Shown here in pieces: positions 10,343-55,962 of a stretch of DNA of 64,000 nt. The stretch is taken from IMG/VR virus record IMGVR_UViG_3300028840_006907, positions 288,001-352,000 of that record. One strand, 5' to 3'. Below the pieces are notes generated by a model. It ran no database searches. It was not told where the DNA came from and saw nothing but the letters and a program-made list of their open reading frames with translations. This DNA is from a virus. The stretch's first letter is position 1; each line of letters opens with the position of its first letter. The translations under genes were made by a program, and so were the position numbers.

Positions 10343-11146
10343 ATGCCGAGATTAAGCTTTATTGTCACTGGACGAAATGACAATTATGACCAAAATTTTA
10401 ATGAACGTTTAACCATCGCTTTAAGAAGAAATATAAAATCCCTTCCAGACGCTGAATTCATTTTTGTAGAATGGAATCCTTATTTAGACCGCCCATTAAC
10501 ATGTTCAAAATTAAAAAGGACTTTTGGAGATCGAGTTAAATATTATGTAGTTCATCCTAAATATCATAAATATTATTGTAACATTGATGGTTTTCTTGAA
10601 TACCCTCCAAAAAATATCGGAATACGTAAGGCTACAGGTGAATTTATTATTTGTACAAATTCAGATGTAATTTTTTGTCCAGATCTAGTTCATTGTATGA
10701 ATATGCATTTGGAAAAAAATGTCCTTTATCGTGCTACTCGAATTGATATCCGACCAGATTATCTTAATGTAAGTTTCCCCCTTCATCCAAAATTTAAGCT
10801 TGAAACAAATCAAGGTCCTATGAATGCAGCGGGTGATTTTCTTTTAATGCATCGGGATCTATGGTATAAAACTACTGGTTATTGCGAGGAATACCCGTGG
10901 CAGAGATTACATAAAGATGCTCAGATAGTTTATTTGCTTTCTAATAAAAGAGGGTATGAAGTTCGAAACATAGGATCTATGACACATTGGAGACATCCTA
11001 GCTCCTGGTCTAATGGAAAATGTCGAGCTAGAGTAGGTGATGTGAATTGGGATTTTCAAAAATGTAATTACAAAATGAATAAAAAAACATGGGGTCTCAC
11101 GTTTACAGATGAGGTCGAAAAAGACGGCATAATTTGGCTAATTTAA
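10343..11146 (+). CDS. putative GT-A fold glycosyltransferase
   Basis: SFIVTGRNDNYD and TGEFIICTNSDVIF resemble GT2/GT7-type motifs. Confidence 0.45.
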   Translation: MPRLSFIVTGRNDNYDQNFNERLTIALRRNIKSLPDAEFIFVEWNPYLDRPLTCSKLKRTFGDRVKYYVVHPKYHKYYCNIDGFLEYPPKNIGIRKATGEFIICTNSDVIFCPDLVHCMNMHLEKNVLYRATRIDIRPDYLNVSFPLHPKFKLETNQGPMNAAGDFLLMHRDLWYKTTGYCEEYPWQRLHKDAQIVYLLSNKRGYEVRNIGSMTHWRHPSSWSNGKCRARVGDVNWDFQKCNYKMNKKTWGLTFTDEVEKDGIIWLI

Positions 11147-12154: not shown

Positions 12155-12856
12155 ATGGAATTAATAACAAAAGCAGTTATAATGGCTGGTGGAGAGGGTA
12201 CTCGGTTAAGACCTTATACAGAAATGACTCCTAAAGCAATGTTAGAGGTTAACGGTATTCCTCTCTTACGTTTAATGATAGAGAGACTTCATAGTTTTGG
12301 TATAACTCATTTCTATTTAAGTGTAAATTATCTCTCGAAAGTAATCTGTGATTATTTCGGTGATGGATCTAAATTTGGGATTAATATCACTTATATAAAA
12401 GAACCTTATTCGATGGGGACCGCAGGTTCAATTAGTATGGTTGATATTGAAGAACCTTTTTTGGTTATAAATGGAGATGTTTATACCAGTCTTGATTTTA
12501 GAGATCTCTTTGTAGAATTTAGAAGATCTAAATCAGATCTATTAATATGTTGTAGGGAGCAATTATTAAAAACAGATTATGGTGTTATTGTAAAAGAAGA
12601 TGACAGGATAACTTCCTGGGTTGAAAAACCTGAGTTTACTCATTACATAAGTTGTGGTATCTATGTATTCAAACCAGAGATTGTAAAATATATACCTAAA
12701 GAACATTTTTTTAATATGAATCATTTAGCTGAAGCGGTTATTGAAAAGAATAAAAAAGCTGGATTTTATTTAATGGATGATCTAGATATCTGGATTGATA
12801 TAGGAACTATTGAAGAATATAATAAGGTCAAGGAATTGTTAACAGTAAAAAAATAA
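12155..12856 (+). CDS. sugar-phosphate nucleotidyltransferase
   Basis: N-terminal AVIMAGGEGTRLRPYT signature of NDP-sugar pyrophosphorylases. Confidence 0.8.
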   Translation: MELITKAVIMAGGEGTRLRPYTEMTPKAMLEVNGIPLLRLMIERLHSFGITHFYLSVNYLSKVICDYFGDGSKFGINITYIKEPYSMGTAGSISMVDIEEPFLVINGDVYTSLDFRDLFVEFRRSKSDLLICCREQLLKTDYGVIVKEDDRITSWVEKPEFTHYISCGIYVFKPEIVKYIPKEHFFNMNHLAEAVIEKNKKAGFYLMDDLDIWIDIGTIEEYNKVKELLTVKK

Positions 12857-12865: not shown

Positions 12866-13759
12866 GTGAGAGTTGTATTTATTGGTTGCGTCAATTTCAG
12901 TAAAGCAATGTTGGAATATGCTTTAGAAATAGAGTGCCTTGAAATAGTGGGTATCGTGACAAAATCAGAATCCAATTTTAATACAGATTTCTGTTCTTTG
13001 GCCCCTTTAGCCCAGGAACATAATATTTCTTATCTTTTATACGATCAATTAAAATCGGAAAGTGGACTCAATAGTTGGGTTGAATTAAAATTTCCTGATG
13101 TGATCTTTTGTTTTGGTTGGTCCCATTTATTAAAAGCTGAACTTATAGAAATTCCTAAAATAGGAGTCATAGGACATCATCCTACAATGCTTCCTAAGAA
13201 TAGAGGGCGACATCCAGTAATATGGGCGTTAGCTTTAGGATTGGAGTATACTGCTTCAACTTTTTTCTTTATAGATCCTGGGGTGGATTCTGGGGATATT
13301 CTAGATCAAATCCCTGTAAATATAAATTTTGATGATGATGCTAGTATTCTCTATCAGAAGATCACAGTGACTGCAGGAAAGCAATTAAAAACATTTTCTC
13401 CTCTTTTGGAGAAAGGAGAATATATAGTTGTTAAACAAGATATGAGTAAAGCTACATGGTGGAGAAAAAGGTCAAAAGCTGATGGATATATTGATTGGCG
13501 TATGAGTTGTTTTTCCATTCATAATTTAGTCCGGGCTTTGACTTGTCCTTATGTAGGGGCTCATTGTGAATTTAACAATAGGGATATAAAGATCTGGAAA
13601 GTTAGAATAATGTATAAAGGATTAGATGATATTGAACCAGGTAAAATAATCGATTTAAATAGAAATAAAAATGAAATCTATATAAAGTGCGGGGATGGAG
13701 TTATGTGTATCTATGATCATGAATTTGATCCTCTGCCTGAGATCGGAACTTATTTATGA
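12866..13759 (+). CDS. formyltransferase family protein (probable sugar N-formyltransferase)
   Basis: GTG start with AAGAGGA RBS; HHPTMLPKNRGRHPVIWAL matches the formyl-transferase catalytic loop. Confidence 0.7.
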   Translation: MRVVFIGCVNFSKAMLEYALEIECLEIVGIVTKSESNFNTDFCSLAPLAQEHNISYLLYDQLKSESGLNSWVELKFPDVIFCFGWSHLLKAELIEIPKIGVIGHHPTMLPKNRGRHPVIWALALGLEYTASTFFFIDPGVDSGDILDQIPVNINFDDDASILYQKITVTAGKQLKTFSPLLEKGEYIVVKQDMSKATWWRKRSKADGYIDWRMSCFSIHNLVRALTCPYVGAHCEFNNRDIKIWKVRIMYKGLDDIEPGKIIDLNRNKNEIYIKCGDGVMCIYDHEFDPLPEIGTYL

Positions 13760-14415
13760 AAATTATTGCCATTGCACCTCATCCTGATGATGAGACTCTG
13801 GGATGTGGTGGTACACTCTTGAAGCATCGGGATGCCTCAGATGATATTTATTTGGTTCTTGTTACTACAGCAGGTTCTGAATACAGTGAAGAGCATATCA
13901 ATAATAAATACAAAGAAATAGATAATGCCAACGAGATTTTTGAATTTAAGACTATCTTCGATTTGGGTTTCCCTGTTACTCATATTGGTTCTATAGATAT
14001 ATCAGAAATAATTGGTAAACTAATGGACACATTTAAATTAGTGGGTCCCGATATTATTTATGTTCCTTTCCCGTATGATATTCATACTGATCATCAAGTT
14101 GTTTTTGATGCGGTTTCTTCGTGTACAAAATGGTTCAGAATACCTACTTTGAAAAGAATACTAGCCTATGAAACTATATCTGAAACAGATTTTATTATTA
14201 GACCCGGTCCTTCTTTTATCCCTAATGTTTTTGTCAATATTGAAGATCACATTGATAAAAAGATAGAGGCTATGAAATGCTATGCTAGTGAAATTGCTAT
14301 GCCTCCTTTTCCTCGTAGTGAGGAGAATATCAGAGCCCTGGCAACATTAAGAGGTTCAACATCTGGTTTCAAAGCTGCGGAAGCTTTCATGTTGTTAAAG
14401 GAGATAGATGAATGA
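13756..14415 (+). CDS. PIG-L/LmbE family N-acetyl-sugar deacetylase
   Basis: IAIAPHPDDETLGCGGTL signature; start overlaps upstream stop. Confidence 0.75.
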   Translation: MKIIAIAPHPDDETLGCGGTLLKHRDASDDIYLVLVTTAGSEYSEEHINNKYKEIDNANEIFEFKTIFDLGFPVTHIGSIDISEIIGKLMDTFKLVGPDIIYVPFPYDIHTDHQVVFDAVSSCTKWFRIPTLKRILAYETISETDFIIRPGPSFIPNVFVNIEDHIDKKIEAMKCYASEIAMPPFPRSEENIRALATLRGSTSGFKAAEAFMLLKEIDE

Positions 14416-15380
14416 GTAAAAAAGTTTTAGTTACTGGTGCAGGAGGATTTATAGGATCTCATTTAGTAAAACGGCTCATGGAATATGGGTATGATGTTAC
14501 AGCACTGGTAAAATATAATGCAAATGGTTCTTGGGGCTGGTTAGACACATTTCATCGTTCTGTAATCAAAGATATTAGAGTAGAGTTGGGTGATGTTCGG
14601 GATCCGGAACAAATGATGAGATATAAAAACATGGATATTATTTTCCATTTAGCTGCTTTGATAGGTATCCCTTATTCCTATGTAGCTCCTCGTTCATATG
14701 TCGATACCAATATAAACGGTACTTTAAACATGCTTCAGGTTTGTCGGGAAAATGGAGCTACTTATATTCATACATCAACTTCTGAGGTATATGGTACAGC
14801 CCTTTATGAACCTATTGATGAAAAACATCCTATCCAAACACAGAGTCCATATTCAGCTACAAAAAGTGCTGGAGATAGTTTAGCAAAGAGTTATTATCTT
14901 TCCTTCGATTTGCCCGTTATTATAGTAAGACCATTCAATACTTTTGGAACACGTCAATCTTTAAGAGCTGTTATTCCCACTATTATCAGTCAGGCATGTA
15001 AAGATGATGTTATAAAACTTGGAGATCCAAGTACCATGAGAGATTTCATTTTTGTGGATGATACTGTAGAAGGCTTTATAAAGGCCGCTGAGAGGGGAAA
15101 ATCTGGAGAGACTTATAATATAGGTTATGGCAAAAAAAGGTCAATAAGAAGTATTGTGGATGACGTAGGCAATATATTAGGTAAAGTTTTAAAAATTGAA
15201 TCGGAACCAGAGAGAATGCGACCTCCGAAGAGTGAGGTAAGAGTTCTTGTTTGTAATAATGAAAAAGCAAAAAAAGAATTGGGATGGGATATTAAATGGC
15301 CTTTTAAAAAAGGGTTGGAATATTTGATCTACGATTGGCAACGAGAAAACAAAGAAAGTAAAGATTTTTATCATGTCTAG
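14412..15380 (+). CDS. NAD-dependent nucleotide-sugar 4,6-dehydratase/epimerase (SDR)
   Basis: VTGAGGFIGSHL Rossmann motif; catalytic YSATK (YxxxK). Confidence 0.8.
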   Translation: MSKKVLVTGAGGFIGSHLVKRLMEYGYDVTALVKYNANGSWGWLDTFHRSVIKDIRVELGDVRDPEQMMRYKNMDIIFHLAALIGIPYSYVAPRSYVDTNINGTLNMLQVCRENGATYIHTSTSEVYGTALYEPIDEKHPIQTQSPYSATKSAGDSLAKSYYLSFDLPVIIVRPFNTFGTRQSLRAVIPTIISQACKDDVIKLGDPSTMRDFIFVDDTVEGFIKAAERGKSGETYNIGYGKKRSIRSIVDDVGNILGKVLKIESEPERMRPPKSEVRVLVCNNEKAKKELGWDIKWPFKKGLEYLIYDWQRENKESKDFYHV

Positions 15381-16449
15381 TATATTTTTACACATACCTC
15401 ATATAGGGGAAGAGGAAAAGGCAGAAGTAAATAAGGCTCTTAATACTGGAGAATTGACCTGTGGAAATTATTTAAATCAATTTGAAAAAGAATTAAGTGA
15501 AAGGATAAATTCTCCTGTTGTTTTATGCTCTTCTGGAACAGCAGCTTTGCAATTAGGTCTACATGCTATGGGTATAGGTCCAGGAGATGAAGTAATTGTT
15601 CCTAATATGTCTTTTGTTTCGACTATAAATTCTGTTTTATATATGGGTGCTACCCCAGTTTTGTGCGATGTAGGTGATCCTGAATACGAGCTTTCCATTG
15701 ATCCTGAAGAAATAATCGATCTCATAACTCCTCGAACTAAAGCTATAATGGTATCTCATCTTTGTGGGGGATACGGTGACATTGAAAAGATATTAGATAT
15801 AGCTAGTGCGTATAAAGTTGATGTCATTGAAGATGCTGCTCAGGCAGTAGGTTGTACTATGAATGGCAAAGCTTTGGGAACATTTGGAAAGTTTGGTGTC
15901 TATTCATTTAATGGGAATAAAATTATCACCACAGGTGGTGGAGGCACTCTTTTAACTTCAGATCGTGGAATGAGTCAGAGAGTACGAAATCTTCTTAATC
16001 AAGCGAAAGACATTTTAAATCCTTTTTCTCATATAGAGATGGGGTATAATTATAGAATCAGTAATATCCATGCTGCGATAGGTTGTGCTCAATTAAAAAA
16101 ATTAGACTCTTTTATTGATAAGAAAAAATTTATTCATGAGACCTATAAAAAGAAGTTAGACATAATAACTTATAAGGAAAAATCCAATTATTGGTTGAAT
16201 GTTTATAAAGTAAAAAAATTTAATCCTTATGAAGCTGTTTGGAATCTGGATTACAAAAGCATAGAGACTCGTCCTATTTATACCCCTTTTCATATGATGG
16301 ATTTTCTTAAAAAATATGGTGAGGATGAATACCCGGTTTCAGAGAAATTATATAACAGTCTTTTTTGTTTGCCATCTTATTTATCTCTTGATGAAGAGAT
16401 AATCGATAAAGTAGTGGATGAAATAAATAATTTGGAGAATAGTGAATGA
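15373..16449 (+). CDS. DegT/DnrJ/EryC1-family PLP-dependent sugar aminotransferase
   Basis: Family-typical layout, FNGNKIITTGGGG motif around the PLP lysine. Confidence 0.85.
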   Translation: MSSIFLHIPHIGEEEKAEVNKALNTGELTCGNYLNQFEKELSERINSPVVLCSSGTAALQLGLHAMGIGPGDEVIVPNMSFVSTINSVLYMGATPVLCDVGDPEYELSIDPEEIIDLITPRTKAIMVSHLCGGYGDIEKILDIASAYKVDVIEDAAQAVGCTMNGKALGTFGKFGVYSFNGNKIITTGGGGTLLTSDRGMSQRVRNLLNQAKDILNPFSHIEMGYNYRISNIHAAIGCAQLKKLDSFIDKKKFIHETYKKKLDIITYKEKSNYWLNVYKVKKFNPYEAVWNLDYKSIETRPIYTPFHMMDFLKKYGEDEYPVSEKLYNSLFCLPSYLSLDEEIIDKVVDEINNLENSE

Positions 16450-17141
16450 AAAAACATATCCTTTTGATGTTTAATATGGGAAATAGTGGTGGGAAGTATT
16501 TCGAAGATATTTGTAATACTCACGAAGATGTTCAGATATGGCAAGAAGCAAATCACCTTTTAAAAGTAGATCATCTTGAGACACCAGTTCAGTTCGACAG
16601 GGTATATGCTTTTTTCATGAAACAGTATGAAGAAAATAAGAAAAAAACCATCGGATTAATAAAAGCTTTTGATCATCGGTTAATAGGATTGGCTGAAAGA
16701 ACTGGTGGGTCTATCATGCAGATGTTCAGACATCCTGTAGGTGTGGTGGGTTTTAAGACAGGCCATAAAATGGCTGAGTGTGAACAGAGAGGTTTGTTTG
16801 ACAAACTAGACACACCTGAAAAGATTTTTGAAGCTCATGTGGATTTTTATGCCTCAATATATAATTCCTATACGAAGAATGCTCATAAGTGGCCTGTTGT
16901 TAAATTAGAGGATTTAAAAAAGTCTTTACGGGAAAGAACTCCGTATTTTGAAGATGTAATGAAAAAAGCGCTGAAAGTTGACTGGCAACCGAAACATACA
17001 AAAAAAGTTATTAATATGGGAGGGCTTGAAGAGAATAGAGATCATTTTGATATTTGGAAATCATGGGAAGATTGGAAGAAAGATATTTTTCTGAAGTATT
17101 TCCAGGAAATAATGAAATTGTATATGTATGAATGGGAATGA
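16446..17141 (+). CDS. sulfotransferase-like protein (paralogue of 20367-21158)
   Basis: MGNSGGKYF (5'-PSB-like) and FRHPVGVV (3'-PB-like RNP motif); clear paralogy with 20367 ORF at N- and C-termini. Confidence 0.4.
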   Translation: MKKHILLMFNMGNSGGKYFEDICNTHEDVQIWQEANHLLKVDHLETPVQFDRVYAFFMKQYEENKKKTIGLIKAFDHRLIGLAERTGGSIMQMFRHPVGVVGFKTGHKMAECEQRGLFDKLDTPEKIFEAHVDFYASIYNSYTKNAHKWPVVKLEDLKKSLRERTPYFEDVMKKALKVDWQPKHTKKVINMGGLEENRDHFDIWKSWEDWKKDIFLKYFQEIMKLYMYEWE

Positions 17142-17155
17142 TAGGAGGACGAAGT

Positions 17156-18151
17156 ATGAAAAATTTGGAAATCATAGCTGAGTTCGGAACTAATCATGTC
17201 GATCCTAATGGTAAAGTTCTTGAAAATATTGAGGATTTGATACATACACTAGCAGACAAAGGAGCGACTGCAGTTAAATTTCAGCTTTTTAAAGCTGATA
17301 ATTTAGTAGAAAAGAATACTGAAGTACATGGCCTTATAAAAAATTTGGAAATTGCTCTTGAAGAGCATGTCAGATTAAAAAAGATCTGCGAAGAAATAGG
17401 TTTGCGGTATCTTTGCACTCCTTTTTGCGTTGAGTCTTTGGATGCTCTTCTTAGTATAGGAGTAAAGGAAATAAAAATAGCCAGTTGTGATTGTGGTAAT
17501 TTACAATTGATGTCAGATATTGTACAACGTCATAACAAAATTCATCGAGTTATAATGGCTACAGGTATGTCAACATTGAATGAAATTGGTGTTTCCATTG
17601 ACATCCTTATTGATGGAGGATTTAATATTGATCTTTTACATTGTACAAGTGTTTACCCTACACCGATATACCGAGCTTCTCTAGACATGATAAGAGTCTT
17701 AAAAAAGAAGTGGGGTTTATTTAATATAGGATATTCGGATCATACATTGGGGACTGAAGTGGTGGGTATAGCCCGAGCTATGGGTTGTACCATTTTTGAA
17801 AAGCATGTAACTCCTGATAGAACAATGCCCGGTTTTGATCATGCTTATTCTTTTCCTATTGATGAATTTGATAAATATGTCGATGCTATCAAGAATGTCG
17901 ATCAGATAATAGGAGAAGAAAGAAAATACGTAGATAAAAAAGAAGCAGTATCTCGTGATGCCATGAAAAGAGGCATATGGTTTAAAAAAGAAGTGTTTAA
18001 AGGGCAGAAAATAACCAGAGATGATATCATTGTACGAAGACCGTTGAAAGGGGCCGTTAACCAGACTTACTATTTTTCTGTTCTTGGTAAAAAAGTAAAG
18101 AAGAATTTTAATGAGGATGATCCCGTTTTAACGGAGAATTTATATGAGTAA
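17156..18151 (+). CDS. N-acetylneuraminate/pseudaminate/legionaminate synthase family (NeuB-like)
   Basis: RBS AGGAGG then ATG 17156; IIAEFGTNHVD signature; nonulosonic-acid synthase length. Confidence 0.85.
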   Translation: MKNLEIIAEFGTNHVDPNGKVLENIEDLIHTLADKGATAVKFQLFKADNLVEKNTEVHGLIKNLEIALEEHVRLKKICEEIGLRYLCTPFCVESLDALLSIGVKEIKIASCDCGNLQLMSDIVQRHNKIHRVIMATGMSTLNEIGVSIDILIDGGFNIDLLHCTSVYPTPIYRASLDMIRVLKKKWGLFNIGYSDHTLGTEVVGIARAMGCTIFEKHVTPDRTMPGFDHAYSFPIDEFDKYVDAIKNVDQIIGEERKYVDKKEAVSRDAMKRGIWFKKEVFKGQKITRDDIIVRRPLKGAVNQTYYFSVLGKKVKKNFNEDDPVLTENLYE

Positions 18152-19052
18152 AATAGGAATTCGATGTGATTGTGGACCGGTAATGGGCATGGGTCATATA
18201 TCTAGGCAGAAACTTATTTATGAAGAACTCATGAAATTGGACCACGAAGTTTCTTTTTTTGTAAAAAGAGAACGGAACATAGTTAAATCAATGGGACTTC
18301 CACTTTCAAATAAGATTTTAATGGATACAATGGATACTTTGATAATTGATTTAGTGGAAGGTTTTGAGGATTATGATTTTCCTCGAACTAAAATAGTTTT
18401 TTATGATGGTCCGGAAATGATACATTGTGATGCTGATATCATTTTTGCTTTAAATTATAAACAACAGAAATCCTGGTATAGAGGAACGGGTTATTATGTT
18501 GGGCTAGATTATATCCCGATGGATCCCAGCATTTCTAAAATAGAGAAAGAATTTGGTAATTTAGAAAAAATATTAATTATGACAAGTGGAATCGATCCTT
18601 GGGATATGCCAGGACAAATAGTTAGAGTTATTAAGGATCTGGGTTATGACATCACAGTTAAATTATCTAATGCTTATCCAAAAGATTGGATCAGTAAACT
18701 TGAGAAACATGCTGAGATAATTTTAAATGTGGATAGTGTTGCTTCATTATATGAAGAATATGATTTAATGATATGTACTGCAGGAAATGTGTTGTTCGAG
18801 GCTGCTGTAGCTGGTTTACCCTGTATAAGTTTTTCGACGGGTAAAGTTCAGGAGGGCCATGGGGCGTTTATGAGTGACAAAGGTTTTTCAGTTCATCTTG
18901 GAGGCTTTTGGAATAATACTGCTGAAGTTGGTTATTTGTCTGATGCTATAAAATTTTTAGCTGATAGATCGGATAGAGAACAAAGATCTGAGATAGGTCG
19001 TTCTATTTGTGATGGTAAAGGATTAGAAAGGATAATAAATATTATAGGGTAA
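18144..19052 (+). CDS. putative PseG-like UDP-sugar hydrolase (GT-B-like)
   Basis: N-terminal IGIRCDCGPVMGMGHISR resembles PseG/SpsG motif; position between synthase and cytidylyltransferase. Confidence 0.4.
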   Translation: MSKIGIRCDCGPVMGMGHISRQKLIYEELMKLDHEVSFFVKRERNIVKSMGLPLSNKILMDTMDTLIIDLVEGFEDYDFPRTKIVFYDGPEMIHCDADIIFALNYKQQKSWYRGTGYYVGLDYIPMDPSISKIEKEFGNLEKILIMTSGIDPWDMPGQIVRVIKDLGYDITVKLSNAYPKDWISKLEKHAEIILNVDSVASLYEEYDLMICTAGNVLFEAAVAGLPCISFSTGKVQEGHGAFMSDKGFSVHLGGFWNNTAEVGYLSDAIKFLADRSDREQRSEIGRSICDGKGLERIINIIG

Positions 19053-19055
19053 AAT

Positions 19056-19718
19056 ATGAAAACTATCGCATTTACATTGCCAGTAAGAAAGAACAGTCAA
19101 AGAGTAAAAAATAAAATGTTAAGACCTTTTGCAGGGAGAAGTTTATTTGAGATCTATTTGGATAAAATCGAATGTTTCAAACATTTGGTTTATGTTGTTG
19201 CCTATGAAGAAGAATTTATTAACATAGCTAAAAAAAGGGGATTTAAATATCTTCATAGAAGTGAAGAGTCTGCTAATGGGGAAACTTCTCCAGTTATCCA
19301 TAGTTATTTAAATGAGATGAAAGAAGATTTCATTTTTATGGCAACTGCGTGTTGTCCTTTGATGAAGACAGAGACTTTGAAAAATATCATGGTAGAGCTA
19401 TGTTCAAAACTCCATGATCCTAATTATCACGGTTTAATAACTGTAAAAAGATGTGGTAATGCTATTTGGAATTCAGAGAAGAAAGTAATGAATGATGATG
19501 TTCGAACTTTCAATACTAAGTTAAGAAAACCTTTTTACATCGAGACTAGTTCCGTTTTTGTTTTTAGACGTGAAAGATTTCTTAAACTAGGTGCATATTG
19601 GGATTTTGGTGATAAAGATCCCGATCTTTATGAAATTAATTCAATTGAAGCTACTGATATTGATACAATGGATGATTTCGAAGTAGCTGAAATACTTTAC
19701 AAAAGAAGGTTGTCATGA
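19056..19718 (+). CDS. acylneuraminate cytidylyltransferase family (CMP-nonulosonic acid synthetase)
   Basis: N-terminal FTLPVRKNSQRVKNK matches the CMP-NeuAc synthetase family motif. Confidence 0.7.
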   Translation: MKTIAFTLPVRKNSQRVKNKMLRPFAGRSLFEIYLDKIECFKHLVYVVAYEEEFINIAKKRGFKYLHRSEESANGETSPVIHSYLNEMKEDFIFMATACCPLMKTETLKNIMVELCSKLHDPNYHGLITVKRCGNAIWNSEKKVMNDDVRTFNTKLRKPFYIETSSVFVFRRERFLKLGAYWDFGDKDPDLYEINSIEATDIDTMDDFEVAEILYKRRLS

Positions 19719-20374
19719 AAAATTATGGCTATGCTGATATGAGTGAAAAAGAAAAATTATCTAAAGAACAAGTATTAGAATTTTGGAAAAATCCTATAAA
19801 CGATAATACTAATAAAAATGAGAACAATGATCCTGAGCATTATTTGAGTGGGGAAAAACGTAGCCGATATCTCGTTGAATTAATTAAAAGGCATTTACAT
19901 AAAGAAGCAAAAATATTAGAGATTGGTTGTAATGTCGGGAGGAATTTGCATTATCTATATGAAACAGGTTATAACAATTTAAATGGGATAGAAATTAATG
20001 ATAATGCTGTTCAAGTGATGCATAAAAATTATCCCGAATTATATGGAAGTGTAGGAATTTATAATTGTCCGGTTGAATCTATTATTACATCTTTTTCCGA
20101 TGAAGCCTATGACTTGGTCTTTACAATGGCTGTTTTAGAGCACATTCATTATGAGAGTGATTTCATTTTCTCTGAGATAGCTCGGGTAGCCAAAAGATGT
20201 ATAATTACAATTGAAGATGAAAAAACTACCTGGAGTAACAGACATTTTCCTCGTAATTATAAGGAGGTGTTTGAGAAGATCGGGAATTGGGTACAGATTT
20301 ATGATATGAATTGTGGTGGGATTAATATACTTGATGATCGATTTTGGGTAAGGGTATTTAAAAAGAATGTCTAA
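19715..20374 (+). CDS. class I SAM-dependent methyltransferase
   Basis: Motif I ILEIGCNVGRN, motif post-I/II region; overlapping start. Confidence 0.6.
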   Translation: MKNYGYADMSEKEKLSKEQVLEFWKNPINDNTNKNENNDPEHYLSGEKRSRYLVELIKRHLHKEAKILEIGCNVGRNLHYLYETGYNNLNGIEINDNAVQVMHKNYPELYGSVGIYNCPVESIITSFSDEAYDLVFTMAVLEHIHYESDFIFSEIARVAKRCIITIEDEKTTWSNRHFPRNYKEVFEKIGNWVQIYDMNCGGINILDDRFWVRVFKKNV

Positions 20375-21158
20375 ACGAATAGTGTTAGTCAGAAATATGG
20401 GAAACAGTGGCGGTGCCTGGTTAATGAAGGTATTTAATATGCATGAAAACATATTAATGTTTCAGGAATTAAACCAGATACTGAGGTTAAGATATGATTA
20501 TTCGGATATAAATAAGAAGAATCTAAATTACCCTCATGTTGACTATGATGTAAAAATAGCTCAACGGAGTCGTGATCTTAAAGGATTTTTATTTAATAGT
20601 AGAACTCAGTGTCATATAGCAACTAGTTTTCTTTTATATCAATATGATATTAGAAAAGAAGATGCGATTGGGTTAATAAAATGTTTTGATCATGAATCTA
20701 TAAGAGAATGTAGAGTAAAATGTCCTTCTGTTAAAGTTGTACAAGTTTTAAGAAATCCTATTGGTATAATAGATTTTTATATGAGTCAGGAAAATTTAAG
20801 GCAAATAGCCCATCATGATCCATATGAAATATCTTTTAAAAAACATGTGGATTTCTTTCATAATAAATTTATAGATTTTTGGGAAAATAATGAAAAAAAA
20901 GGTGAGAAAATTATACGACTAGAAGATTTGAATATATCATTGAAAGATGGAAATCCTTTCTTAAAAGACACTATGGAAGATTTATTTGAAGTTAATTTCT
21001 CAAATGAATTTATTGAAAAAATCAAACAAAATTTAGGTTATGGGAATGAAGGTAACCAGAATAAAGAGATATGGCAAAACTGGGAAGGATGGAAAAAAGA
21101 ATATTTCAAGAAATATTTCGAAAATCTAATGATGAATCTTGGCTATGAATTGAGGTGA
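20367..21158 (+). CDS. sulfotransferase-like protein (paralogue of 16446-17141)
   Basis: MGNSGGAWL and VLRNPIGIIDFY (resembles SULT 3'-PB RNPKD region); shared C-terminal W..W.GWKK.YF motif with paralogue. Confidence 0.4.
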   Translation: MSKRIVLVRNMGNSGGAWLMKVFNMHENILMFQELNQILRLRYDYSDINKKNLNYPHVDYDVKIAQRSRDLKGFLFNSRTQCHIATSFLLYQYDIRKEDAIGLIKCFDHESIRECRVKCPSVKVVQVLRNPIGIIDFYMSQENLRQIAHHDPYEISFKKHVDFFHNKFIDFWENNEKKGEKIIRLEDLNISLKDGNPFLKDTMEDLFEVNFSNEFIEKIKQNLGYGNEGNQNKEIWQNWEGWKKEYFKKYFENLMMNLGYELR

Positions 21159-21161
21159 TAA

Positions 21162-21737
21162 ATGAATTTATTTGAATCTGCGTACTATACTGAAGAGGAT
21201 CTGAGAAAAGGCGGTTTTAAAAGTGTCGGTAAAAATGTTCAGATTGATAAAAGTTGCACGATAATAGGCTTAGATAAAATCACTCTAGGAGATAATGTTC
21301 GAATCGATGGTTACTGTTGTATTATTGCCACAAAAGAGGAAGTGATTTTCGGTTCTTATATTCATATAGGTTCGTTTTGTCATCTCTGTGGAACTGCAGG
21401 TCTTATAATGAAAGATTTTTCAGGTTTGTCACAAGGAGTTCGAATTTACTCCTCTTCTGATGATTATTCAGGAAAGTTTTTAACTAATCCAACTGTTCCC
21501 GATAAATACACAGGTATAATAAGAGAACCAGTTATTATAGGTAAACATGTTATAATCGGGGCTAATACTGTTATTCTTCCAGGAGTTGTTATAGGTGATG
21601 GGTCAGCTATTGGTGCCATGTCCCTTGTAACAAAAGACGTAGATAAAAATAGTGTCTATGCAGGTTGTCCAGCGAAATTTATAAAAACACGTTCAAAAAG
21701 AATATTTGATTTAGAGAAGAGGTTATTAAATGAATAA
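21162..21737 (+). CDS. hexapeptide-repeat (LbH) acetyltransferase
   Basis: Left-handed beta-helix repeats IGANTVILPGVVIGDGSAIGAMSLV. Confidence 0.75.
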   Translation: MNLFESAYYTEEDLRKGGFKSVGKNVQIDKSCTIIGLDKITLGDNVRIDGYCCIIATKEEVIFGSYIHIGSFCHLCGTAGLIMKDFSGLSQGVRIYSSSDDYSGKFLTNPTVPDKYTGIIREPVIIGKHVIIGANTVILPGVVIGDGSAIGAMSLVTKDVDKNSVYAGCPAKFIKTRSKRIFDLEKRLLNE

Positions 21738-22443
21738 ATCAATTTTCATATGTTCAGGAGGTCGATGTGGTACACATTGGGTTCGGCCTATTCTTGCTCA
21801 GCTTTTAGATTTACAAACTGGGTTTGATTGGAAAGGATATAATCCAAATAAAATTCCCTTTAAAACAGAACCTGGAGCTATTTGGAAAATAAAGATGGTA
21901 GAAAAGAGAGAGCCAGGAGGAAGGATTTATTCAGGGCATATGCCAATTACAGAACTTCTACCTATTATCAGTTTAGTAAATATAATAATTCTTATAAGAG
22001 ATCCTAGAGATATGTGTGTTTCGGCTGCATATTATACTCCAGAAAGAAGAGTATTAACTCAAGAAGAATTTGAATCTAAATTTAATAATTTATTAATACA
22101 AGGAAGCCCGAATCCTGATTTTCATGAATCTTATATAGAAAGTAAGAATAAAATACCTCATTTTTTATTAAAATATGAAGATATGATTCATGATGATTAT
22201 GGCTCAATAGTTAAATTTTTAAATAATTCAGGTTATAAATTTGAAGAAGAAAAATTAAAATATGTACTTGATAAAAACTCATTCAAGAATTTATCAGGTG
22301 GACGAGAAGCCGGTGAGGAGGATAATACCGCTTTTTATAGAAAAGGTATTGTGGGTGATTGGGTAAATTATCTCTCTAATGGTTTACTTGAACAATATAC
22401 CGATAGGCATAAAACTTTGTTGGAAGAATGGGGGTATATGTAA
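21730..22443 (+). CDS. sulfotransferase
   Basis: 5'-PSB-like SGGRCGTHW, 3'-PB RDPRD, and C-terminal RKGIVGDWVN matching RKGxxGDWKN. Confidence 0.75.
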   Translation: MNKSIFICSGGRCGTHWVRPILAQLLDLQTGFDWKGYNPNKIPFKTEPGAIWKIKMVEKREPGGRIYSGHMPITELLPIISLVNIIILIRDPRDMCVSAAYYTPERRVLTQEEFESKFNNLLIQGSPNPDFHESYIESKNKIPHFLLKYEDMIHDDYGSIVKFLNNSGYKFEEEKLKYVLDKNSFKNLSGGREAGEEDNTAFYRKGIVGDWVNYLSNGLLEQYTDRHKTLLEEWGYM

Positions 22444-22444
22444 T

Positions 22445-23116
22445 ATGGAAGATTATTTTGAACAAATGGTAACAGTTTTTAAAAAGTACTTTAAAGAGTA
22501 TTATCGTAATGTATTCACAAATCAATCAGTGGAAACCTGTACAGGTATTTATAATCTTTGTAAAAAAGAAAATCCAGATCAAGTAGTGGAAATGGGAACC
22601 AATCATGGGGCTTCTACTCTTTCTATAGTAAAAGCACTGACTGATTTAGGGAAAGATTTGTCTATTATTACTTCAATTGATTTAGACCACGAGAAATGGA
22701 AGGCAACATTTAATATACAAAAAGAATTGATTAAAAAGTATGATTTAAATTTAGGAAAAGTAAAATTAATAACTCAAGATTTTAATTCAGTAGATCCTGT
22801 AGAAATAATTGACCCTGAAAAGAAAGTATTTATTTTTTATGATATGCATGATCATCGAGGCCCATGGTCACAGAGACTACTTGATTTATGGGTACCTTTA
22901 GTTAAGAATGGTGTCTTCTCTATTCATGATGTAACTCCTGTAAGTGAATCCTTTGAAATAGTTCAGGATAAAATTTCCCCTCGAACAAAGATACAGTATA
23001 AGAGTGGGCAGTATTTTGCAGGTTTCAATGAATGTTTTCGAATAATAAAATGGGCAAATACAAATAACATAAATATAGAGATATTTCCAGGAGGAGTATA
23101 TTTCAGAAATGGCTAA
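22445..23116 (+). CDS. putative class I methyltransferase (CmcI/TylF-like)
   Basis: ATG right after upstream stop; VVEMGTNHGAST resembles CmcI-type SAM-binding; weak. Confidence 0.35.
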   Translation: MEDYFEQMVTVFKKYFKEYYRNVFTNQSVETCTGIYNLCKKENPDQVVEMGTNHGASTLSIVKALTDLGKDLSIITSIDLDHEKWKATFNIQKELIKKYDLNLGKVKLITQDFNSVDPVEIIDPEKKVFIFYDMHDHRGPWSQRLLDLWVPLVKNGVFSIHDVTPVSESFEIVQDKISPRTKIQYKSGQYFAGFNECFRIIKWANTNNINIEIFPGGVYFRNG

Positions 23117-23795
23117 CATTTTTATTGGAAAAAATATGTCAAATATAAAAAATATTCCTGGTTTAAATAAAATAACAAAGATACATGATGTGGCTGATTA
23201 TGTGAGATTAGCTGATTTTGTCTATAAAACAATTTCCCATTCTATGGATAGTGGGATTGATTTAGATTATTCTGTTAATCAATTGTATTGGCAATTTGTG
23301 AATAAAAAGAGATTTGGATGGTGCTATATGCATGCTCTGTATTATCATCTTATAGTACAAGAATATGGTCGTGAATCTTTTGTTTATGATTATGGCTTAC
23401 CAGCGCCACAATTAACTCATAGTGTTGTTGTAGTAACTTTACGTGATGATAAGTATTTAATTGATCCTTATTTTAATCGTTATTATGTAACAGAAAAAGG
23501 GAATCCGTATACATTTCCTGACTTATTGGCTATGATAAAAACTGATCCAACAAAAATTTATAGTAAATATGGACCTGGTTTGAAAGAAGTTAAACAGGGA
23601 GATAAATATATAGAAACTTCTCCTGAACAATTTGAAAAAGGAGTATTGGAATCGTGGCGAGTAAATCAGAATTATGATAAAATAATGATGGAAAAATTTA
23701 ATAGCACAAATGCATTATTATTAATGCATTGTAAAGTACAAAAAGCTAAAGTATGTAAAAAAATAGATGGGACAAAGTATTTTGACTTTTTCTAA
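23109..23795 (+). CDS. hypothetical protein
   Basis: ORF in operon context; no motif recognised. Confidence 0.5.
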   Translation: MANIFIGKNMSNIKNIPGLNKITKIHDVADYVRLADFVYKTISHSMDSGIDLDYSVNQLYWQFVNKKRFGWCYMHALYYHLIVQEYGRESFVYDYGLPAPQLTHSVVVVTLRDDKYLIDPYFNRYYVTEKGNPYTFPDLLAMIKTDPTKIYSKYGPGLKEVKQGDKYIETSPEQFEKGVLESWRVNQNYDKIMMEKFNSTNALLLMHCKVQKAKVCKKIDGTKYFDFF

Positions 23796-24570
23796 TGTTA
23801 TATCCTTTATCAGTGCATTTAAAAAGTTTAAACCTCCTTATGGTATGATACAGCATTCTGCTATGTATTCATGGAATGCTAATAATATTGAAGTATTTGT
23901 TCCAGATAATGAGGTTGGAGTTAAAGATGCTTGTCAGAGTTATCCTAATATTAAATTAATCCCCGATGTTAAACGGGCTCGGGAAATGGGCTTTTCAAAT
24001 CAGTCTCCTATGGTAAAAGATCTGATTGCAAAAGCTCTACCTTTAATCAATACTCCGATGGTAGCTTTAATTAATTCAGACATTATAATTCAACCTGATT
24101 TTATAGAAAGAATAGAAAAAATACTGAAAGAATACGGTTTTGATATTTATATGGTGGGAACTCGATTTGATATTAAATTGGATATTCATATAAGTTCGGA
24201 AGAGACATATAAACAGGTATTGAGTTCAGAACGAAAAAGTTATGATGGCAGTACTTCTTCAGATATATTTATAGCTTCTAAATTTACCTGGAGGAAGATA
24301 GTTCATGAAATGCCTGATTTTATTCTAGGTCGGTATGGGTGGGATAATTGGTTACATATGATTGCAGAACTTAAAGGATATCGTAAATTTAATTGTACAG
24401 ATGCTTTGACTATTCTTCATTGTGAGCATGATCATAAGCATATAGTTCTTCAGGAAAAGGCTGAAAAACAAAGTGCTCCAAGTTCACAGCATAATTTAAA
24501 GTTATGGAATGAAGTAAAAAATGTTTATGGGACGACCAGGATAAATGCATGGCCAAAAATTGAAATATAA
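23767..24570 (+). CDS. hypothetical protein
   Basis: ORF in operon context; start uncertain. Confidence 0.5.
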   Translation: MGQSILTFSNVISFISAFKKFKPPYGMIQHSAMYSWNANNIEVFVPDNEVGVKDACQSYPNIKLIPDVKRAREMGFSNQSPMVKDLIAKALPLINTPMVALINSDIIIQPDFIERIEKILKEYGFDIYMVGTRFDIKLDIHISSEETYKQVLSSERKSYDGSTSSDIFIASKFTWRKIVHEMPDFILGRYGWDNWLHMIAELKGYRKFNCTDALTILHCEHDHKHIVLQEKAEKQSAPSSQHNLKLWNEVKNVYGTTRINAWPKIEI

Positions 24571-24661: not shown

Positions 24662-25480
24662 ATGAACCTTCTTCAGAGAGTAAAAAAATATTGGGATGAT
24701 AGACCCTGTAATATACGCCATTCAAAGGAACCCGTTGGAACCAGAAATTATTTCAATGAGGTTGAATATAAAAAATATAAAGTTGAACCGCATATATCAG
24801 GTTTCGCTGATTTTAATAAATGGAAGGATAAAAAGGTCCTTGAGATAGGCTGTGGGCTGGGCACTGAGACTATAAATTTTGCTAGAGCTGGTGCTAGGGT
24901 TGTCGCTGTGGATATGTCTGAGAAATCTTTGGAGCTGGCTAAGAAACGAGCGGAAGTTTTTGGCTTGTCCGATAAGATTACATTTTATCAGGGAAATGCT
25001 GAAGAACTTGATAAATTTATCCCAGCTCAGAAATTTGATCTTATCTGGTCTTTTGGTGTTATTCATCATACCCCGAATCCTGAGAACGTTATTGAATGTA
25101 TCAAGAAGTACCTGTCTCCAAGCAGTGAATTACGAATGATGGTTTATAATAAATTTAGTTGGAAAGTATTCTGGATCCTTTTTAAGTACGGGAAGTTTAA
25201 GTTTTGGGATATTGATAAATTCATAGCTCAAAATTCAGAAGCTCAGACCGGGTGCCCAATCACCTACACTTATACAAATAAATCAGTTCAAAAATTACTA
25301 AAAGGGTTTGTAATCGATAATATTAAAATTGAGCATATTTTTCCTTATAAAATTCGTGAATATAAGGAGAATAAATTCAAATTTATCTGGTATTTTAGAT
25401 ACCTGCCCAAATGGTTTTTTCATTGGTTAGAAAAGAGAATCGGTTGGCATATGTGCATAATCGCCAGATGGAGAATTTAG
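24662..25480 (+). CDS. class I SAM-dependent methyltransferase
   Basis: VLEIGCGLGTETINFARAGARVVAVDMSE motif I/II; RBS AAGGA upstream. Confidence 0.8.
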   Translation: MNLLQRVKKYWDDRPCNIRHSKEPVGTRNYFNEVEYKKYKVEPHISGFADFNKWKDKKVLEIGCGLGTETINFARAGARVVAVDMSEKSLELAKKRAEVFGLSDKITFYQGNAEELDKFIPAQKFDLIWSFGVIHHTPNPENVIECIKKYLSPSSELRMMVYNKFSWKVFWILFKYGKFKFWDIDKFIAQNSEAQTGCPITYTYTNKSVQKLLKGFVIDNIKIEHIFPYKIREYKENKFKFIWYFRYLPKWFFHWLEKRIGWHMCIIARWRI

Positions 25481-26195: not shown

Positions 26196-26963
26196 ATGAT
26201 AGATGCGAAAAGAGTCGTTTTTTCATACTTAAATTTAAAAGTTGCCAAAGATATGACACCAGAAGAGGCAAAGAAAATAGTGGATAAAATGCCTCCAGGA
26301 AGATTTGATAAAATTAAAAAATTGTTACAGCCTTTTGCTAGATTGTTTAAAAAATCTTTTAATGTAAGAGATGCTGGTGTCCTTGATACTTTAGGAAAAT
26401 TAAGTAGGGCTAAGGGAATTCCTCTTGTTGAATTGTTAGCAGTAGCTTCTATCATGTTTGGTGCTACTGTTCCGTCTTATGCTGACACTGCTAAAGAAAA
26501 AGCTCCAATAGTTCAAGTAAAAGAGAAAAGGCCCATTTCTGAGGTAAGAGCGGATCTAGAAAAAGTTTTTGAATTACCAAAAGGTTTAATGACTCTTGTA
26601 AAAGTTACTCCTCAATTAGCAATAAATTTAAAAGGTATAGATGGATTTGTAGAGACCGTGGGTAAAAATCTCGATAAGAGTATAACTCCTGAAGTTTCAG
26701 TATTGTTAAATCAAGTCCCAGATAATCAATGGCCTGAATTATTGTCTGGTTTAGTAATGCAGAAAATTCAAGAAGATGATAAAGTTGATAAGAAATTTAA
26801 AAAGTTTATTAAACACCATAAAACTAGCCCTCAAAATATGAAAAAAGAGATAGCAAAAGTTGTCTCACAAGAGAAATCTGGCATTCAAAAATTTGTTGAT
26901 AAAGGCATGGCTGAGAAGGGCCTAGCTAAAAAAGCCCATGAAAGAGGCTATTTAATTTCATAA
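26196..26963 (+). CDS. hypothetical protein
   Basis: RBS-like GGGG upstream; Lys-rich protein-like composition; preferred over overlapping antisense ORF 26132-26455. Confidence 0.5.
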   Translation: MIDAKRVVFSYLNLKVAKDMTPEEAKKIVDKMPPGRFDKIKKLLQPFARLFKKSFNVRDAGVLDTLGKLSRAKGIPLVELLAVASIMFGATVPSYADTAKEKAPIVQVKEKRPISEVRADLEKVFELPKGLMTLVKVTPQLAINLKGIDGFVETVGKNLDKSITPEVSVLLNQVPDNQWPELLSGLVMQKIQEDDKVDKKFKKFIKHHKTSPQNMKKEIAKVVSQEKSGIQKFVDKGMAEKGLAKKAHERGYLIS

Positions 26964-27496
26964 ATAGCTGTCTTTGTAGTTTTCATACCGAAAAGTTTAA
27001 ATGGATATTTCCCTAAAAACAATTCTATTGCATCTTGGTATACGTATTCTACAGGATTTTGAAGAATTATAATTCCTCCTTTTCTCACTTTTGGAACAGC
27101 CTCTTTGATACAAGAAGATCTTGATCTACCATTTATGAAAATGATATCAAAAGAATGATCAGCAAAGTTATTTATATAATTTACATAGTCTCTAAAATTC
27201 TTATATAAATAAGCCGGTACAGTACTTCCGAAGCTCTCATGGCTGTAAGGAAAGGGTTTAGGGTCATCGATAGGTTCTATTAATTCATAAGTAAAATTTC
27301 CTTTATTAGGTCCTATCTGTTTTTTTAATGTCTCATATGTTTCTCTGTCATGTTCCACTGATACTACAGCTTTAACAGTTCTTCTGAAATAAATAGTAGA
27401 ATCTCCTGATCCATATTCAAAAGTGATCATGTCATATTCAATGAAACTTTTTAACCAGTCTATAGCTTCAGGTTCAATTGGGGGGTAAACTTCCAT
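26948..27496 (-). CDS. putative class I methyltransferase-like protein
   Basis: EYGSGDSTIYF (motif I-like) and FDIIFINGRS; weak. Confidence 0.4.
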   Translation of the reverse strand: MEVYPPIEPEAIDWLKSFIEYDMITFEYGSGDSTIYFRRTVKAVVSVEHDRETYETLKKQIGPNKGNFTYELIEPIDDPKPFPYSHESFGSTVPAYLYKNFRDYVNYINNFADHSFDIIFINGRSRSSCIKEAVPKVRKGGIIILQNPVEYVYQDAIELFLGKYPFKLFGMKTTKTAIYEIK

Positions 27497-27856: not shown

Positions 27857-27858
27857 TT

Positions 27859-32615: not shown

Positions 32616-32623
32616 TTAATTCC

Positions 32624-36765: not shown

Positions 36766-36788
36766 TTTATTCCTCTAATTTAAATATG

Positions 36789-37337: not shown

Positions 37338-37344
37338 TTTTTTC

Positions 37345-39081: not shown

Positions 39082-39084
39082 TTA

Positions 39085-48543: not shown

Positions 48544-49032
48544 ATGAATAAGCAATCGTTTAATAAAGAAAATGTTACAGAACTTCTTAGTCAATTGAAA
48601 AAAGTAGTTAATCGGGATTTGGGTGATGAATATAATCAGGAATTAATAGAATTAAGTAGGAAAATAGACCGAAATTTTAAAAAGAGAAAATTAGTAATGC
48701 GGGTGGCTTCTAATTTTTTAAAAACTATTCTTGCTACAATGGCATATAGTACTCATGGTAAATGGTCACCTTCAAAAGAGATTTATAAAACTGAAAAAGA
48801 ACGTGGTAATAAAGTTGATAAACTTCTTTTACAAGAAAATTATGACGCTATTTGGGTATGCCCTAAACCAGAAGATTGTGTAAGATATAATAGAAGTAGT
48901 GATGAAGAAGATGATCCTGTAACACAGGAAGAAATTGATGAACTCGTCAAAGTCAATTTGAGTGGAGCTACACACGTAAAATCTATGGATGATGGTGATG
49001 GCGGGGAATTATGGATTAGAAAGGCAAAGTAG
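48544..49032 (+). CDS. hypothetical protein
   Basis: ORF in operon. Confidence 0.5.
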   Translation: MNKQSFNKENVTELLSQLKKVVNRDLGDEYNQELIELSRKIDRNFKKRKLVMRVASNFLKTILATMAYSTHGKWSPSKEIYKTEKERGNKVDKLLLQENYDAIWVCPKPEDCVRYNRSSDEEDDPVTQEEIDELVKVNLSGATHVKSMDDGDGGELWIRKAK

Positions 49033-49610
49033 TGATTTGTTCTGATGAATATCAATTCATATTTTATGCAGTCCCTAAAACCGGTTCTCGATCCATGCAA
49101 AATTTTCTTCAACGTTACGGTCGTCGCTCTGTAACTGGCTGGTCACCTAATCATAATAATTATGAAGAAGTAAAAAGTGATGTAGGTATAGAAAAAAGTA
49201 ATAAATATTTTAAGTTTGCTTTTTTCAGAAATCCATGGGCTATGCTTGTATCCATGTATTTCTATAATATGCATATATGGGGACTAAATGCCAAAAAAGA
49301 TTCTGTTGTAAATTGGCTTAATACATATAAAGGCGGGGATCCTTATATTCCTTATATTTTTGATAATGAAGGAAATGCCATTTTGGATTTTATGGGTAAG
49401 TTAGAAAATTCCAGAGAAGATTTAAAAACTGTCTGTAAAATGTTAAAGATCCCGATCTCAGGAGAATTGTCCCATATAGGAAAACAACATGTAAAAGGAA
49501 GATTGGATTATAGAGCGTATTATGAAAGTCCAGTACTAGTGGAAAAAATAAGAAAGATATTTTCAAAAAGTCTTAGTGTGTTAAATTATGACTTTAATGA
49601 AGGGGTTTAA
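49032..49610 (+). CDS. sulfotransferase-like protein
   Basis: N-terminal FYAVPKTGSRSMQ resembles PAPS 5'-PSB motif; GTG start. Confidence 0.5.
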   Translation: MICSDEYQFIFYAVPKTGSRSMQNFLQRYGRRSVTGWSPNHNNYEEVKSDVGIEKSNKYFKFAFFRNPWAMLVSMYFYNMHIWGLNAKKDSVVNWLNTYKGGDPYIPYIFDNEGNAILDFMGKLENSREDLKTVCKMLKIPISGELSHIGKQHVKGRLDYRAYYESPVLVEKIRKIFSKSLSVLNYDFNEGV

Positions 49611-50816: not shown

Positions 50817-50823
50817 AGGTAAT

Positions 50824-55859: not shown

Positions 55860-55962
55860 ATGAGTACCTCTTTTTAGTATATTACTTATTATAACAGGTA
55901 TTAGAGTTATTGTCAATATTTCATTTAATAAATATGGAATTCATTAATTTATAGGGAAAAAG

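Follow-up and report, generated by a model that had tools for sequence, protein, structure and literature searches.

We analysed four sulfotransferase-like genes in a 64,000-nucleotide stretch of viral DNA (IMG/VR record IMGVR_UViG_3300028840_006907, positions 288,001 to 352,000; hereafter the window), which probably derives from the very large genome of a phage. Two of these genes, copies A and B, are most likely anciently duplicated members of a rare clade without a curated model in the superfamily of sulfotransferases that use 3'-phosphoadenosine 5'-phosphosulfate (PAPS), with the TPST/Sulfotransfer_3 type nearest to them. We favour, with some reservation, a reading in which A and B belong to a divergent TPST-like clade and use PAPS to sulfate a glycan or nonulosonate, each at an acceptor position of its own, alongside a canonical enzyme, ST1, and in which Asn or His at position 13 partly replaces the usual cation. 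The surface glycan of the phage is probably sulfated. The four genes are:

ST1, 21730..22443 (+): 237 residues, predicted canonical Sulfotransfer_1 enzyme
Copy A, 16446..17141 (+): 231 residues, predicted sulfotransferase-fold family without a curated model
Copy B, 20367..21158 (+): 263 residues, paralogue of copy A
Fourth sulfotransferase gene, 49032..49610 (+): 192 residues, GTG start, short phage-type, Sulfotransfer_2/Gal3ST-like

All four open reading frames (ORFs) listed in an initial annotation of this DNA are present, with every motif that it quoted in place, and its label "sulfotransferase-like" is supported for each of them, by Pfam for two and by fold and profile homology for the pair. 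ST1 carries GRCGTHW at residues 11-17 (nucleotides 21760-21780), RDPRD at residues 90-94 and RKGIVGDWVN at residues 204-213. MGNSGG occupies residues 11-16 in both copy A and copy B, and VLRNPIGIIDFY residues 127-138 of copy B. ORF 49032-49610 has YAVPKTGSRSMQ at residues 12-23 and, in addition to what had been annotated, FRNPWAMLVS at residues 65-74. No further copies of pair-type or canonical sulfotransferases were found elsewhere in the window. The suggestion that the glycan made by this locus is sulfated at several positions is plausible but unproven, and the donor loop of the pair is non-canonical.

Copies A and B are paralogues with a predicted sulfotransferase fold

A and B had been proposed to be paralogues of each other, and BLASTP indeed aligns them over their full length at 29% identity (E 2e-34), with a 32-residue insertion in copy B after strand 2. 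The key residues of copy A are the loop G12-N13-S14-G15-G16, Y18, H26, E34, K73, R95-H-P97, E155, W204/W207 and K211/K212, and those of copy B are N13, W18, E34, K105, R129-N-P131 and E186. The public gene call for copy B (L001 13952) begins at Met11, giving a protein of 253 residues that drops strand β1. We prefer the start at 20367, which creates an 8 nt overlap with the upstream methyltransferase gene, because all homologues start MSKRIVL.

The family to which the two copies belong is rare, with 23 clusters among 5.8 billion proteins and 62 members recovered when HMMER was run exhaustively over 1.84 billion representatives. The A-type and B-type orthologue groups are each kept at 50-80% identity. 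Searches of annotated phages by megablast (positions 14000-23000) and tblastn (copy B) gave no match, and pattern-seeded scans of IMG/VR and GTDB species genomes revealed, within the limits of those searches, no relatives for the close-family alignment. Neither copy shows pairwise sequence similarity to ST1, nor a sequence relationship to short phage sulfotransferases of the ORF 49032-49610 type.

To the extent that predicted models can be compared, the pair has the sulfotransferase α/β fold, with a parallel sheet, a strand-loop-helix element and a C-terminal helical cap. AlphaFold2 modelled copy A with a predicted local distance difference test (pLDDT) score of 92.8 and a predicted template modelling (pTM) score of 0.88. 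The model of copy B (pLDDT 88.3) is of low confidence in the insertion (residues 41-75) and, compared by element order, has its secondary-structure elements in the same order as A. In a Foldseek search of the PDB with copy A, the top 19 matches were all sulfotransferases (TPSTs, CurM-ST and SULTs; TMq 0.44-0.59), and in the viral structure library BFVD, annotated phage and giant-virus sulfotransferases ranked first.

Profile comparison points in the same direction. Alignment by hhalign of the 60-sequence family with a 12-sequence Sulfotransfer_1/3 alignment gave 88.5% probability and E 2.7e-6 over 218 collinear columns, pairing GhSGGsW with gRcGThW, RNP with RdprD and RLEDL with kyEdm. The motifs of the pair that had been described as weaker therefore coincide, in this profile-profile alignment, with the homologous motifs of genuine sulfotransferases. 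In a search of PDB sequences with the 60-sequence profile, five of the nine matches listed were sulfotransferases. A 23-sequence family profile found nothing among PDB sequences, and single-sequence hhalign of the family against ST1 or ORF 49032-49610 gave only short, motif-level matches of low probability. The profiles suggest, with moderate statistical support, that the pair is homologous to recognised sulfotransferases.

Candidate active-site residues are conserved across the family

In human TPST2, catalysis involves Arg78, Glu99 and Lys158, and the Ala mutant of each loses most activity (PMC10951654). We counted residue conservation in 60 family representatives, of which only 51-52 align in some columns. 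Glu34, present in 56 of 60, maps at the sequence level to the catalytic Glu of TPSTs (Glu99 in TPST2) with identical spacing, 21 residues beyond the loop residue, and sits within a TPST-like H-P-x(6)-E motif. At the end of strand 3, Lys73 is a candidate counterpart of TPST2 Lys158 and is found in 53 of 60. The putative 3'-phosphate Arg in R-[N/H]-P, Arg95 (R129 in copy B), is kept in 58 of 60, and the neighbouring Pro97 in 59 of 60. Gly12 is present in all 52 aligned sequences, and Glu155 of the (Y/L)-E-D-L motif is invariant (60/60). The predicted adenine-stacking aromatic at loop position +5 is Trp18 in 48 of 51 and Tyr in copy A.

Seven family members keep a canonical GRSGG[ST]W loop, and the family therefore grades into ordinary sulfotransferases. 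The related loci, which we denote L followed by a number, include several unusual arrangements. Three tandem family copies lie in L011 (12-2122), two of them with canonical GRSGGTW loops. One L008 copy (4807-5703) has Tyr in place of the Arg of the 3'-phosphate-binding motif (3'-PB), in the form VYNP, and an L006 member (4835-6262) is a protein of 475 residues fused to a Methyltransf_9 domain.

In the mechanism that we propose, host-made PAPS would be bound in the strand-loop-helix G-N-S-G-G, where Trp or Tyr18 would stack on the adenine and Arg95 would hold the 3'-phosphate. Glu34 would serve as the general base, as Glu99 does in TPST2, while Lys73 would stabilise the transition state in the manner of Lys158, and Asn or His13 would partly stand in for the usual cationic loop residue. 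The sulfuryl group would then pass to a distinct hydroxyl or amino group of the nonulosonic acid, of its precursor linked to cytidine monophosphate (CMP) or a nucleoside diphosphate (NDP), or of a neighbouring sugar such as glucuronic acid (GlcA). A and B, each with its own acceptor position, would act beside ST1. For A and B, we infer from sequence the binding of PAPS, catalysis despite Asn13 and the acceptor.

The pair lies in a predicted legionaminic-type glycan cluster

Copy A sits between a LegC-like aminotransferase gene and a NeuB-type synthase gene, and copy B is placed after the genes for a CMP-nonulosonate cytidylyltransferase and a methyltransferase. The surrounding genes, assigned by Pfam unless another source is given, are as follows (UDP, uridine diphosphate; SAM, S-adenosylmethionine):

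UDP-glucose dehydrogenase, 8931
Epimerase, 11162
Sugar-1-phosphate nucleotidylyltransferase, 12155-12856 (+)
N-formyltransferase, ArnA-type, 12866-13759 (+)
PIG-L-type deacetylase, 13756-14415 (+)
LegB-like 4,6-dehydratase, 14412-15380 (+): NCBIfam TIGR04180, 390 bits, below the curated cut-off of 475
LegC-like aminotransferase, 15373-16449 (+): NCBIfam TIGR04181, 304 bits, below the curated cut-off of 420
NeuB-type nonulosonate synthase, 17132-18151 (+): Pfam NeuB, 197.7 bits; NCBIfam NeuB 244 and PseI 179 bits
PseG-like NDP-sugar hydrolase, 18144-19052 (+): NCBIfam PseG, 63.6 bits
PseF-like CMP-cytidylyltransferase, 19056-19718 (+): NCBIfam PseF, 48 bits
SAM methyltransferase, 19715-20374 (+): Methyltransf_11
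Left-handed β-helix (hexapeptide) acyltransferase, 21162-21737 (+): Pfam Hexapep, 49.2 bits
Methyltransf_24 gene, probable start 22445 (+)
Arylamine-NAT-like ORF, 23109-23795 (+): PF00797, weak, E 1.5e-4, just under the cut-off
GT2-like ORF, weak, 23767-24570 (+)
SAM methyltransferase, 24662-25480 (+)

Each of six legionaminic acid pathway roles (LegB, LegC, N-acyltransferase, NDP-sugar hydrolase, NeuB-type synthase and CMP-synthetase) has a candidate in this list, in which the acyltransferase at 21162-21737 is likely the LegH/PglD-type N-acetyltransferase of the pathway. The NCBIfam scores of the pathway genes are all under their equivalog cut-offs, and the hydrolase is PseG-like, not LegG-like. 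We therefore assign the product only as a legionaminic-type 5,7-diamino nonulosonic acid and leave its stereochemistry unassigned; it probably carries N-formyl and N-acetyl groups. Copy A was also considered as a missing N-acyltransferase in the LegH/PseH slot. This candidate was rejected, as the cluster already encodes a hexapeptide acyltransferase along with a formyltransferase and A is missing from its slot in the syntenic locus L003.

The same setting recurs in related loci. NeuB/formyltransferase/PIG-L clusters host the family in the window lineage, L003, L008, L010 and L012, and every cluster with enough flank combines a legionaminic-type nonulosonic-acid pathway with at least one canonical Sulfotransfer_1/3 gene alongside the family. 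L010, whose proteins are 50-76% identical, keeps the order LegB, LegC, A, NeuB, PseG-like, CMP-transferase, B, acyltransferase, ST1. The copy B slot is filled in L003, L010 and L012, and in L012 its occupant, directly after the cytidylyltransferase, is an Arg-type member. L003 has no A in the A slot, but three family copies elsewhere in the cluster. The absence of A from its slot there argues that A is an accessory tailoring gene and not a core step. Loci carry two to three family copies, in tandem in L009 (two) and L011 (three), and the GC content of family-bearing contigs ranges from 32% to 57%.

Some neighbouring genes deserve separate mention. The longest Methyltransf_24 ORF overlaps ST1 by 65 nt (22379-22443), and the public call starts at ATG 22445 and encodes 223 residues; the start at 22445 is more likely correct. 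ORF 23109-23795 is conserved in L003 and L010, and may supply the cluster with an unusual acyltransferase. A protein of about 267 residues without a Pfam match always follows the UDP-glucose dehydrogenase (10343-11146 (+) in the window, 382-1188 in L003 and 1461-2267 in L010), and the L003 dehydrogenase gene carries an intein (PF14890, weak). At 4336-7320, the window encodes a 994-residue fusion of GT2, GT1 and methyltransferase domains. The opposite strand (-) carries another glycan-modification block at 26948-39759, which also holds three methyltransferases; with this block and the 4336-7320 fusion, the glycan island comes to about 35 kb. Further genes in the (-) block include (TPP, thiamine diphosphate):

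Split TPP enzyme, E1_dh 27859-28485 (-) and Transket_pyr 29514-30038 (-), flanking a radical-SAM ORF at 28478-29545
GT10 fucosyltransferase-like ORF, 33287-34090 (-)
GT2 and methyltransferase fusion, 34711-36765 (-)
GT2, 39085-39759 (-)

Alternative explanations for copies A and B

Several observations weigh against PAPS-dependent sulfation by A and B. The two copies have no match in Pfam, NCBIfam or PHROG scans, and hidden Markov model (HMM) searches of the kind that the initial annotation had recommended placed ST1 in Sulfotransfer_1 and ORF 49032-49610 in Sulfotransfer_2 and left the pair without a curated-model match. Curated domains are absent from the whole family, only 3 of 60 members reaching E ~1e-3 on Sulfotransfer_1 or Sulfotransfer_3. 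The best sequence match of the 60-sequence profile in the PDB, TPST1, is collinear at E 0.14, which is not significant alone. The position of the Lys/Arg in the 5'-phosphosulfate-binding loop (5'-PSB), Arg78 in TPST2, is Asn13 in both window copies, so that neither has the canonical cation, though the loop (G-N-S-G-G) is present and aligned. Across the family, position 13 is His in 22 members, Asn in 16 and Arg in seven, with Asn or His in 38 of 52 aligned representatives and in every copy of loci L001-L009. The 3'-PB Ser position (Arg+8) is Phe in both window copies and variable across the family, hhalign found no conserved counterpart of the C-terminal RKG motif in the family, and the equivalence of Lys73 and Lys158 is off by 1-2 residues in the HMMER alignment. 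Mutating the 5'-PSB loop Lys/Arg of SULT1E1 largely abolishes activity, and all characterised sulfotransferases known to us carry a catalytic Lys/Arg in this loop. In TPST2, mutation of the loop Arg largely abolished activity as well (PMC10951654). With Asn at the loop position and Phe at the 3'-PB Ser position, activity of A and B is thus plausible but unproven. Lastly, the search for PAPS-synthesis genes that had been suggested found neither ATP sulfurylase nor adenosine 5'-phosphosulfate (APS) kinase among window ORFs of at least 100 residues, so that the supply of PAPS would fall to the host or to genes in the rest of the genome.

The same loop and 3'-PB substitutions (Lys/Arg to Asn, Ser to Phe) could mean that A and B are pseudo-sulfotransferases, either regulatory or catalytically dead, acting as specificity or scaffold subunits for the adjacent ST1 and perhaps still binding PAP(S) or a sugar. 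That a canonical sulfotransferase gene stands beside the family in every sufficiently long locus would fit such a role, as would the L008 copy without the 3'-PB Arg. Nevertheless, we regard it as unlikely. Glu34, Lys73, Arg95, Pro97 and Glu155 are near-invariant in 60 very divergent representatives, which would be unusual for dead enzymes, and two or three diverged paralogues are retained per cluster. Moreover, His13, found in 22 members, can still provide a proton or charge, and the one fused member is joined to a methyltransferase, not to a sulfotransferase. The fold could also support another chemistry, either a transient activating sulfation like that of CurM and olefin synthase (OLS) or the use of another donor or group, leaving the final glycan without sulfate from A and B. 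This appears improbable, given that TPSTs match the pair equally well, that no partner enzyme for elimination or decarboxylation is evident, that Arg-type members fill the copy B slot, and that the loss of A from its slot in the otherwise syntenic L003 speaks against an obligatory core step.

A P-loop kinase fold, such as that of sugar or nucleotide kinases, was the outcome that the initial annotation had named as refuting its proposal. The pair is not kinase-like: A has a predicted sulfotransferase fold and B the same order of secondary-structure elements. Kinases do appear among the structural matches, but more weakly, over about 140 residues versus about 190 for sulfotransferases, and neither copy has a Walker A GxxxxGK[ST]. 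The pair does have RNP and LEDL, motifs specific to sulfotransferases, and an HP..E motif of TPST type, and together with the hhalign result (E 2.7e-6) these make a kinase identity highly improbable. A more ambitious proposal than tailoring by a divergent TPST-like clade, and one that we hold to be doubtful, is that A and B represent a new sulfotransferase-fold class with Asn or His for the 5'-PSB Lys/Arg, which would tailor 5,7-diamino nonulosonic acids into O- or N-sulfated legionaminic-type sugars and would be encoded by huge phages for remodelling of the host or virion surface. In its stronger version, the altered donor site would signify that A and B use another donor, or a chemistry that differs from simple PAPS sulfation. 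To our knowledge, O- or N-sulfated legionaminic-type sugars have not been reported in bacteria or phages.

ST1 and ORF 49032-49610 are predicted ordinary sulfotransferases

ST1 matches Pfam Sulfotransfer_1 (PF00685) at 81.1 bits over profile positions 3-254 of 255, the Pfam cut-off being 22 bits for both Sulfotransfer_1 and Sulfotransfer_2. It carries the 5'-PSB GRCGTHW (R12, W17), the 3'-PB R90..S98, KYEDM and RKGIVGDW, along with a putative catalytic His in GH(70)MP. Word-indexed homologue searches returned ten relatives for ST1 and two for an L008 Sulfotransfer_3 protein. R12, G14, T15, W17, R90, D94 and S98 are invariant across the ST1 relatives, and syntenic orthologues occur in L003, L005 and L010. 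A tblastn search of annotated phages with ST1 gave no match. Judged by these features, ST1 is a canonical Sulfotransfer_1 enzyme in every mark of membership.

ORF 49032-49610 matches Sulfotransfer_2 (PF03567) at 38.6 bits over its N-terminal 77 residues only. PHROG 3347, "Galactose-3-O-sulfotransferase", matches it at full length (E 1e-7), and tblastn aligned it with 99% coverage to the annotated sulfotransferase of Stenotrophomonas phage DLP_6 and also matched an ORF of a 484 kb uncultured phage. Both the 5'-PSB PKTGS (K16) and the 3'-PB RNPWAMLVS (R66, S74) are intact. Given these full-length matches and the presence of both motifs, its short length is a family trait and not a truncation. 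The initial annotation had listed this gene together with the other three. It is separated from the glycan cluster by 27 kb, has a different set of neighbours and is predicted to be an independent, ordinary short phage sulfotransferase. Two genes upstream, a rhodanese-domain protein (PF00581, E 8e-10) is encoded at 47967-48536 (+), and a link between the two through sulfur metabolism is possible.

Source genome of the window

The proteins of the window map to an NCBI contig of 469,617 bp, and JGI sample 3300017963 contains a version of 388,651 bp. The features that point to a huge phage are a GC content of 33%, short and densely packed genes, a Tad3 homologue, a Mom-like/HNH ORF and the C-terminus of a 1228-residue ORF. 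The Tad3 anti-Thoeris homologue, an anti-defence gene at 50788-51252 (+) (PF25185, E 5e-33, 113.8 bits), supports a phage origin of the window. An ORF of 835 residues at 53409-55916 (-) has Mom-like, DUF7487 and HNH/homing-endonuclease-like matches and may encode a DNA-modification enzyme into which a mobile endonuclease module has been inserted or to which it has been fused. The 1228-residue ORF at 59979-63665 (+) has no Pfam or PHROG match; its last ~150-180 residues resemble, at 27.8-35.7% identity, tail-fibre-like or virion structural proteins from myoviruses of Flavobacterium and cyanobacteria. As we saw neither a capsid nor a terminase gene in the window, we infer the phage origin from such pointers.

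Significance and comparison with known systems

The nonulosonic acids that bacteria display on their surfaces and flagella help to determine phage adsorption, motility and immune recognition; acyl, amidino, methyl and glyceroyl groups are the decorations known for them. Our literature searches returned no relevant report of sulfotransferases in clusters for pseudaminic or legionaminic acid (nonulosonic acids), or in huge phages, and a sulfotransferase was mentioned by none of the papers on nonulosonic-acid clusters that they listed. A rare sulfotransferase-fold family that the Pfam, NCBIfam and PHROG models searched do not detect, and that is linked in two to three copies to legionaminic-type clusters on contigs of uncultured, probably phage, origin, suggests glycan chemistry in huge phages that has yet to be explored. 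It also offers a natural test of whether sulfuryl transfer needs the "invariant" loop Lys/Arg, and its alignment could seed an HMM that ends the "hypothetical" annotation of these genes. Should the pair prove inactive or ordinary, what remains would be a glycan island of a phage that encodes two standard sulfotransferases.

The closest structural relatives, TPST1 and TPST2 (PDB 5WRI and 3AP3; Sulfotransfer_3 type), share only ~10% identity with the pair. Where TPSTs have Arg78 and Ser191, the pair's equivalents are Asn or His and Phe or a variable residue. Unlike TPSTs, the pair has no membrane anchor, and the acceptor of TPSTs is a protein tyrosine, whereas the genomic context of the pair points to a sugar. 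The ST domains of CurM and olefin synthase (PDB 4GBM and 4GOX), the second-best structural matches, are bacterial, of the Sulfotransfer_3 type and likewise embedded in a biosynthetic pathway. They are polyketide synthase domains with the canonical Arg loop, and sulfate a β-hydroxyl in order to activate decarboxylative elimination, whereas A and B are stand-alone proteins in a sugar cluster.

With Sulfotransfer_1 enzymes, including ST1, the pair shares collinear P-loop-W, R-x-P and (Y/L)-E-D-(M/L) motifs. It differs from them in lacking the loop Lys/Arg, the 3'-PB Ser and RKG, and in its candidate base, which is Glu where SULT-type enzymes have His. ORF 49032-49610 is, in turn, a full-length member of the short phage sulfotransferases (PHROG 3347, DLP_6), with PKTGS and RNPxxxxxS. 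The sources that we searched named no characterised acceptor for this group.

For the glycan itself, a chemical precedent exists in the N-glycan of the surface (S-)layer of Halorubrum sp. PV6 and of its virus HRPV-1, which contains Glc, GlcA, Man, sulfated GlcA as well as 5-N-formyl-legionaminic acid and so combines a uronic acid, sulfate and N-formyl-legionaminic acid in one glycan (PMC6137143). The window encodes similar chemistry, with UDP-glucose dehydrogenase, formyltransferase, Leg-type genes and sulfotransferases. The comparison is by analogy only, since that glycan is made by the archaeal host and not by the virus, no sulfotransferase is named, and the window has 33% GC. As the sulfate of the PV6/HRPV-1 glycan is on GlcA, at least one sulfate in the phage glycan may be placed on a uronic acid instead of the nonulosonic acid. 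Set beside these systems, the pair is a rare, cluster-specific clade without a curated model and with a non-canonical donor loop, and holds no surprise of principle.

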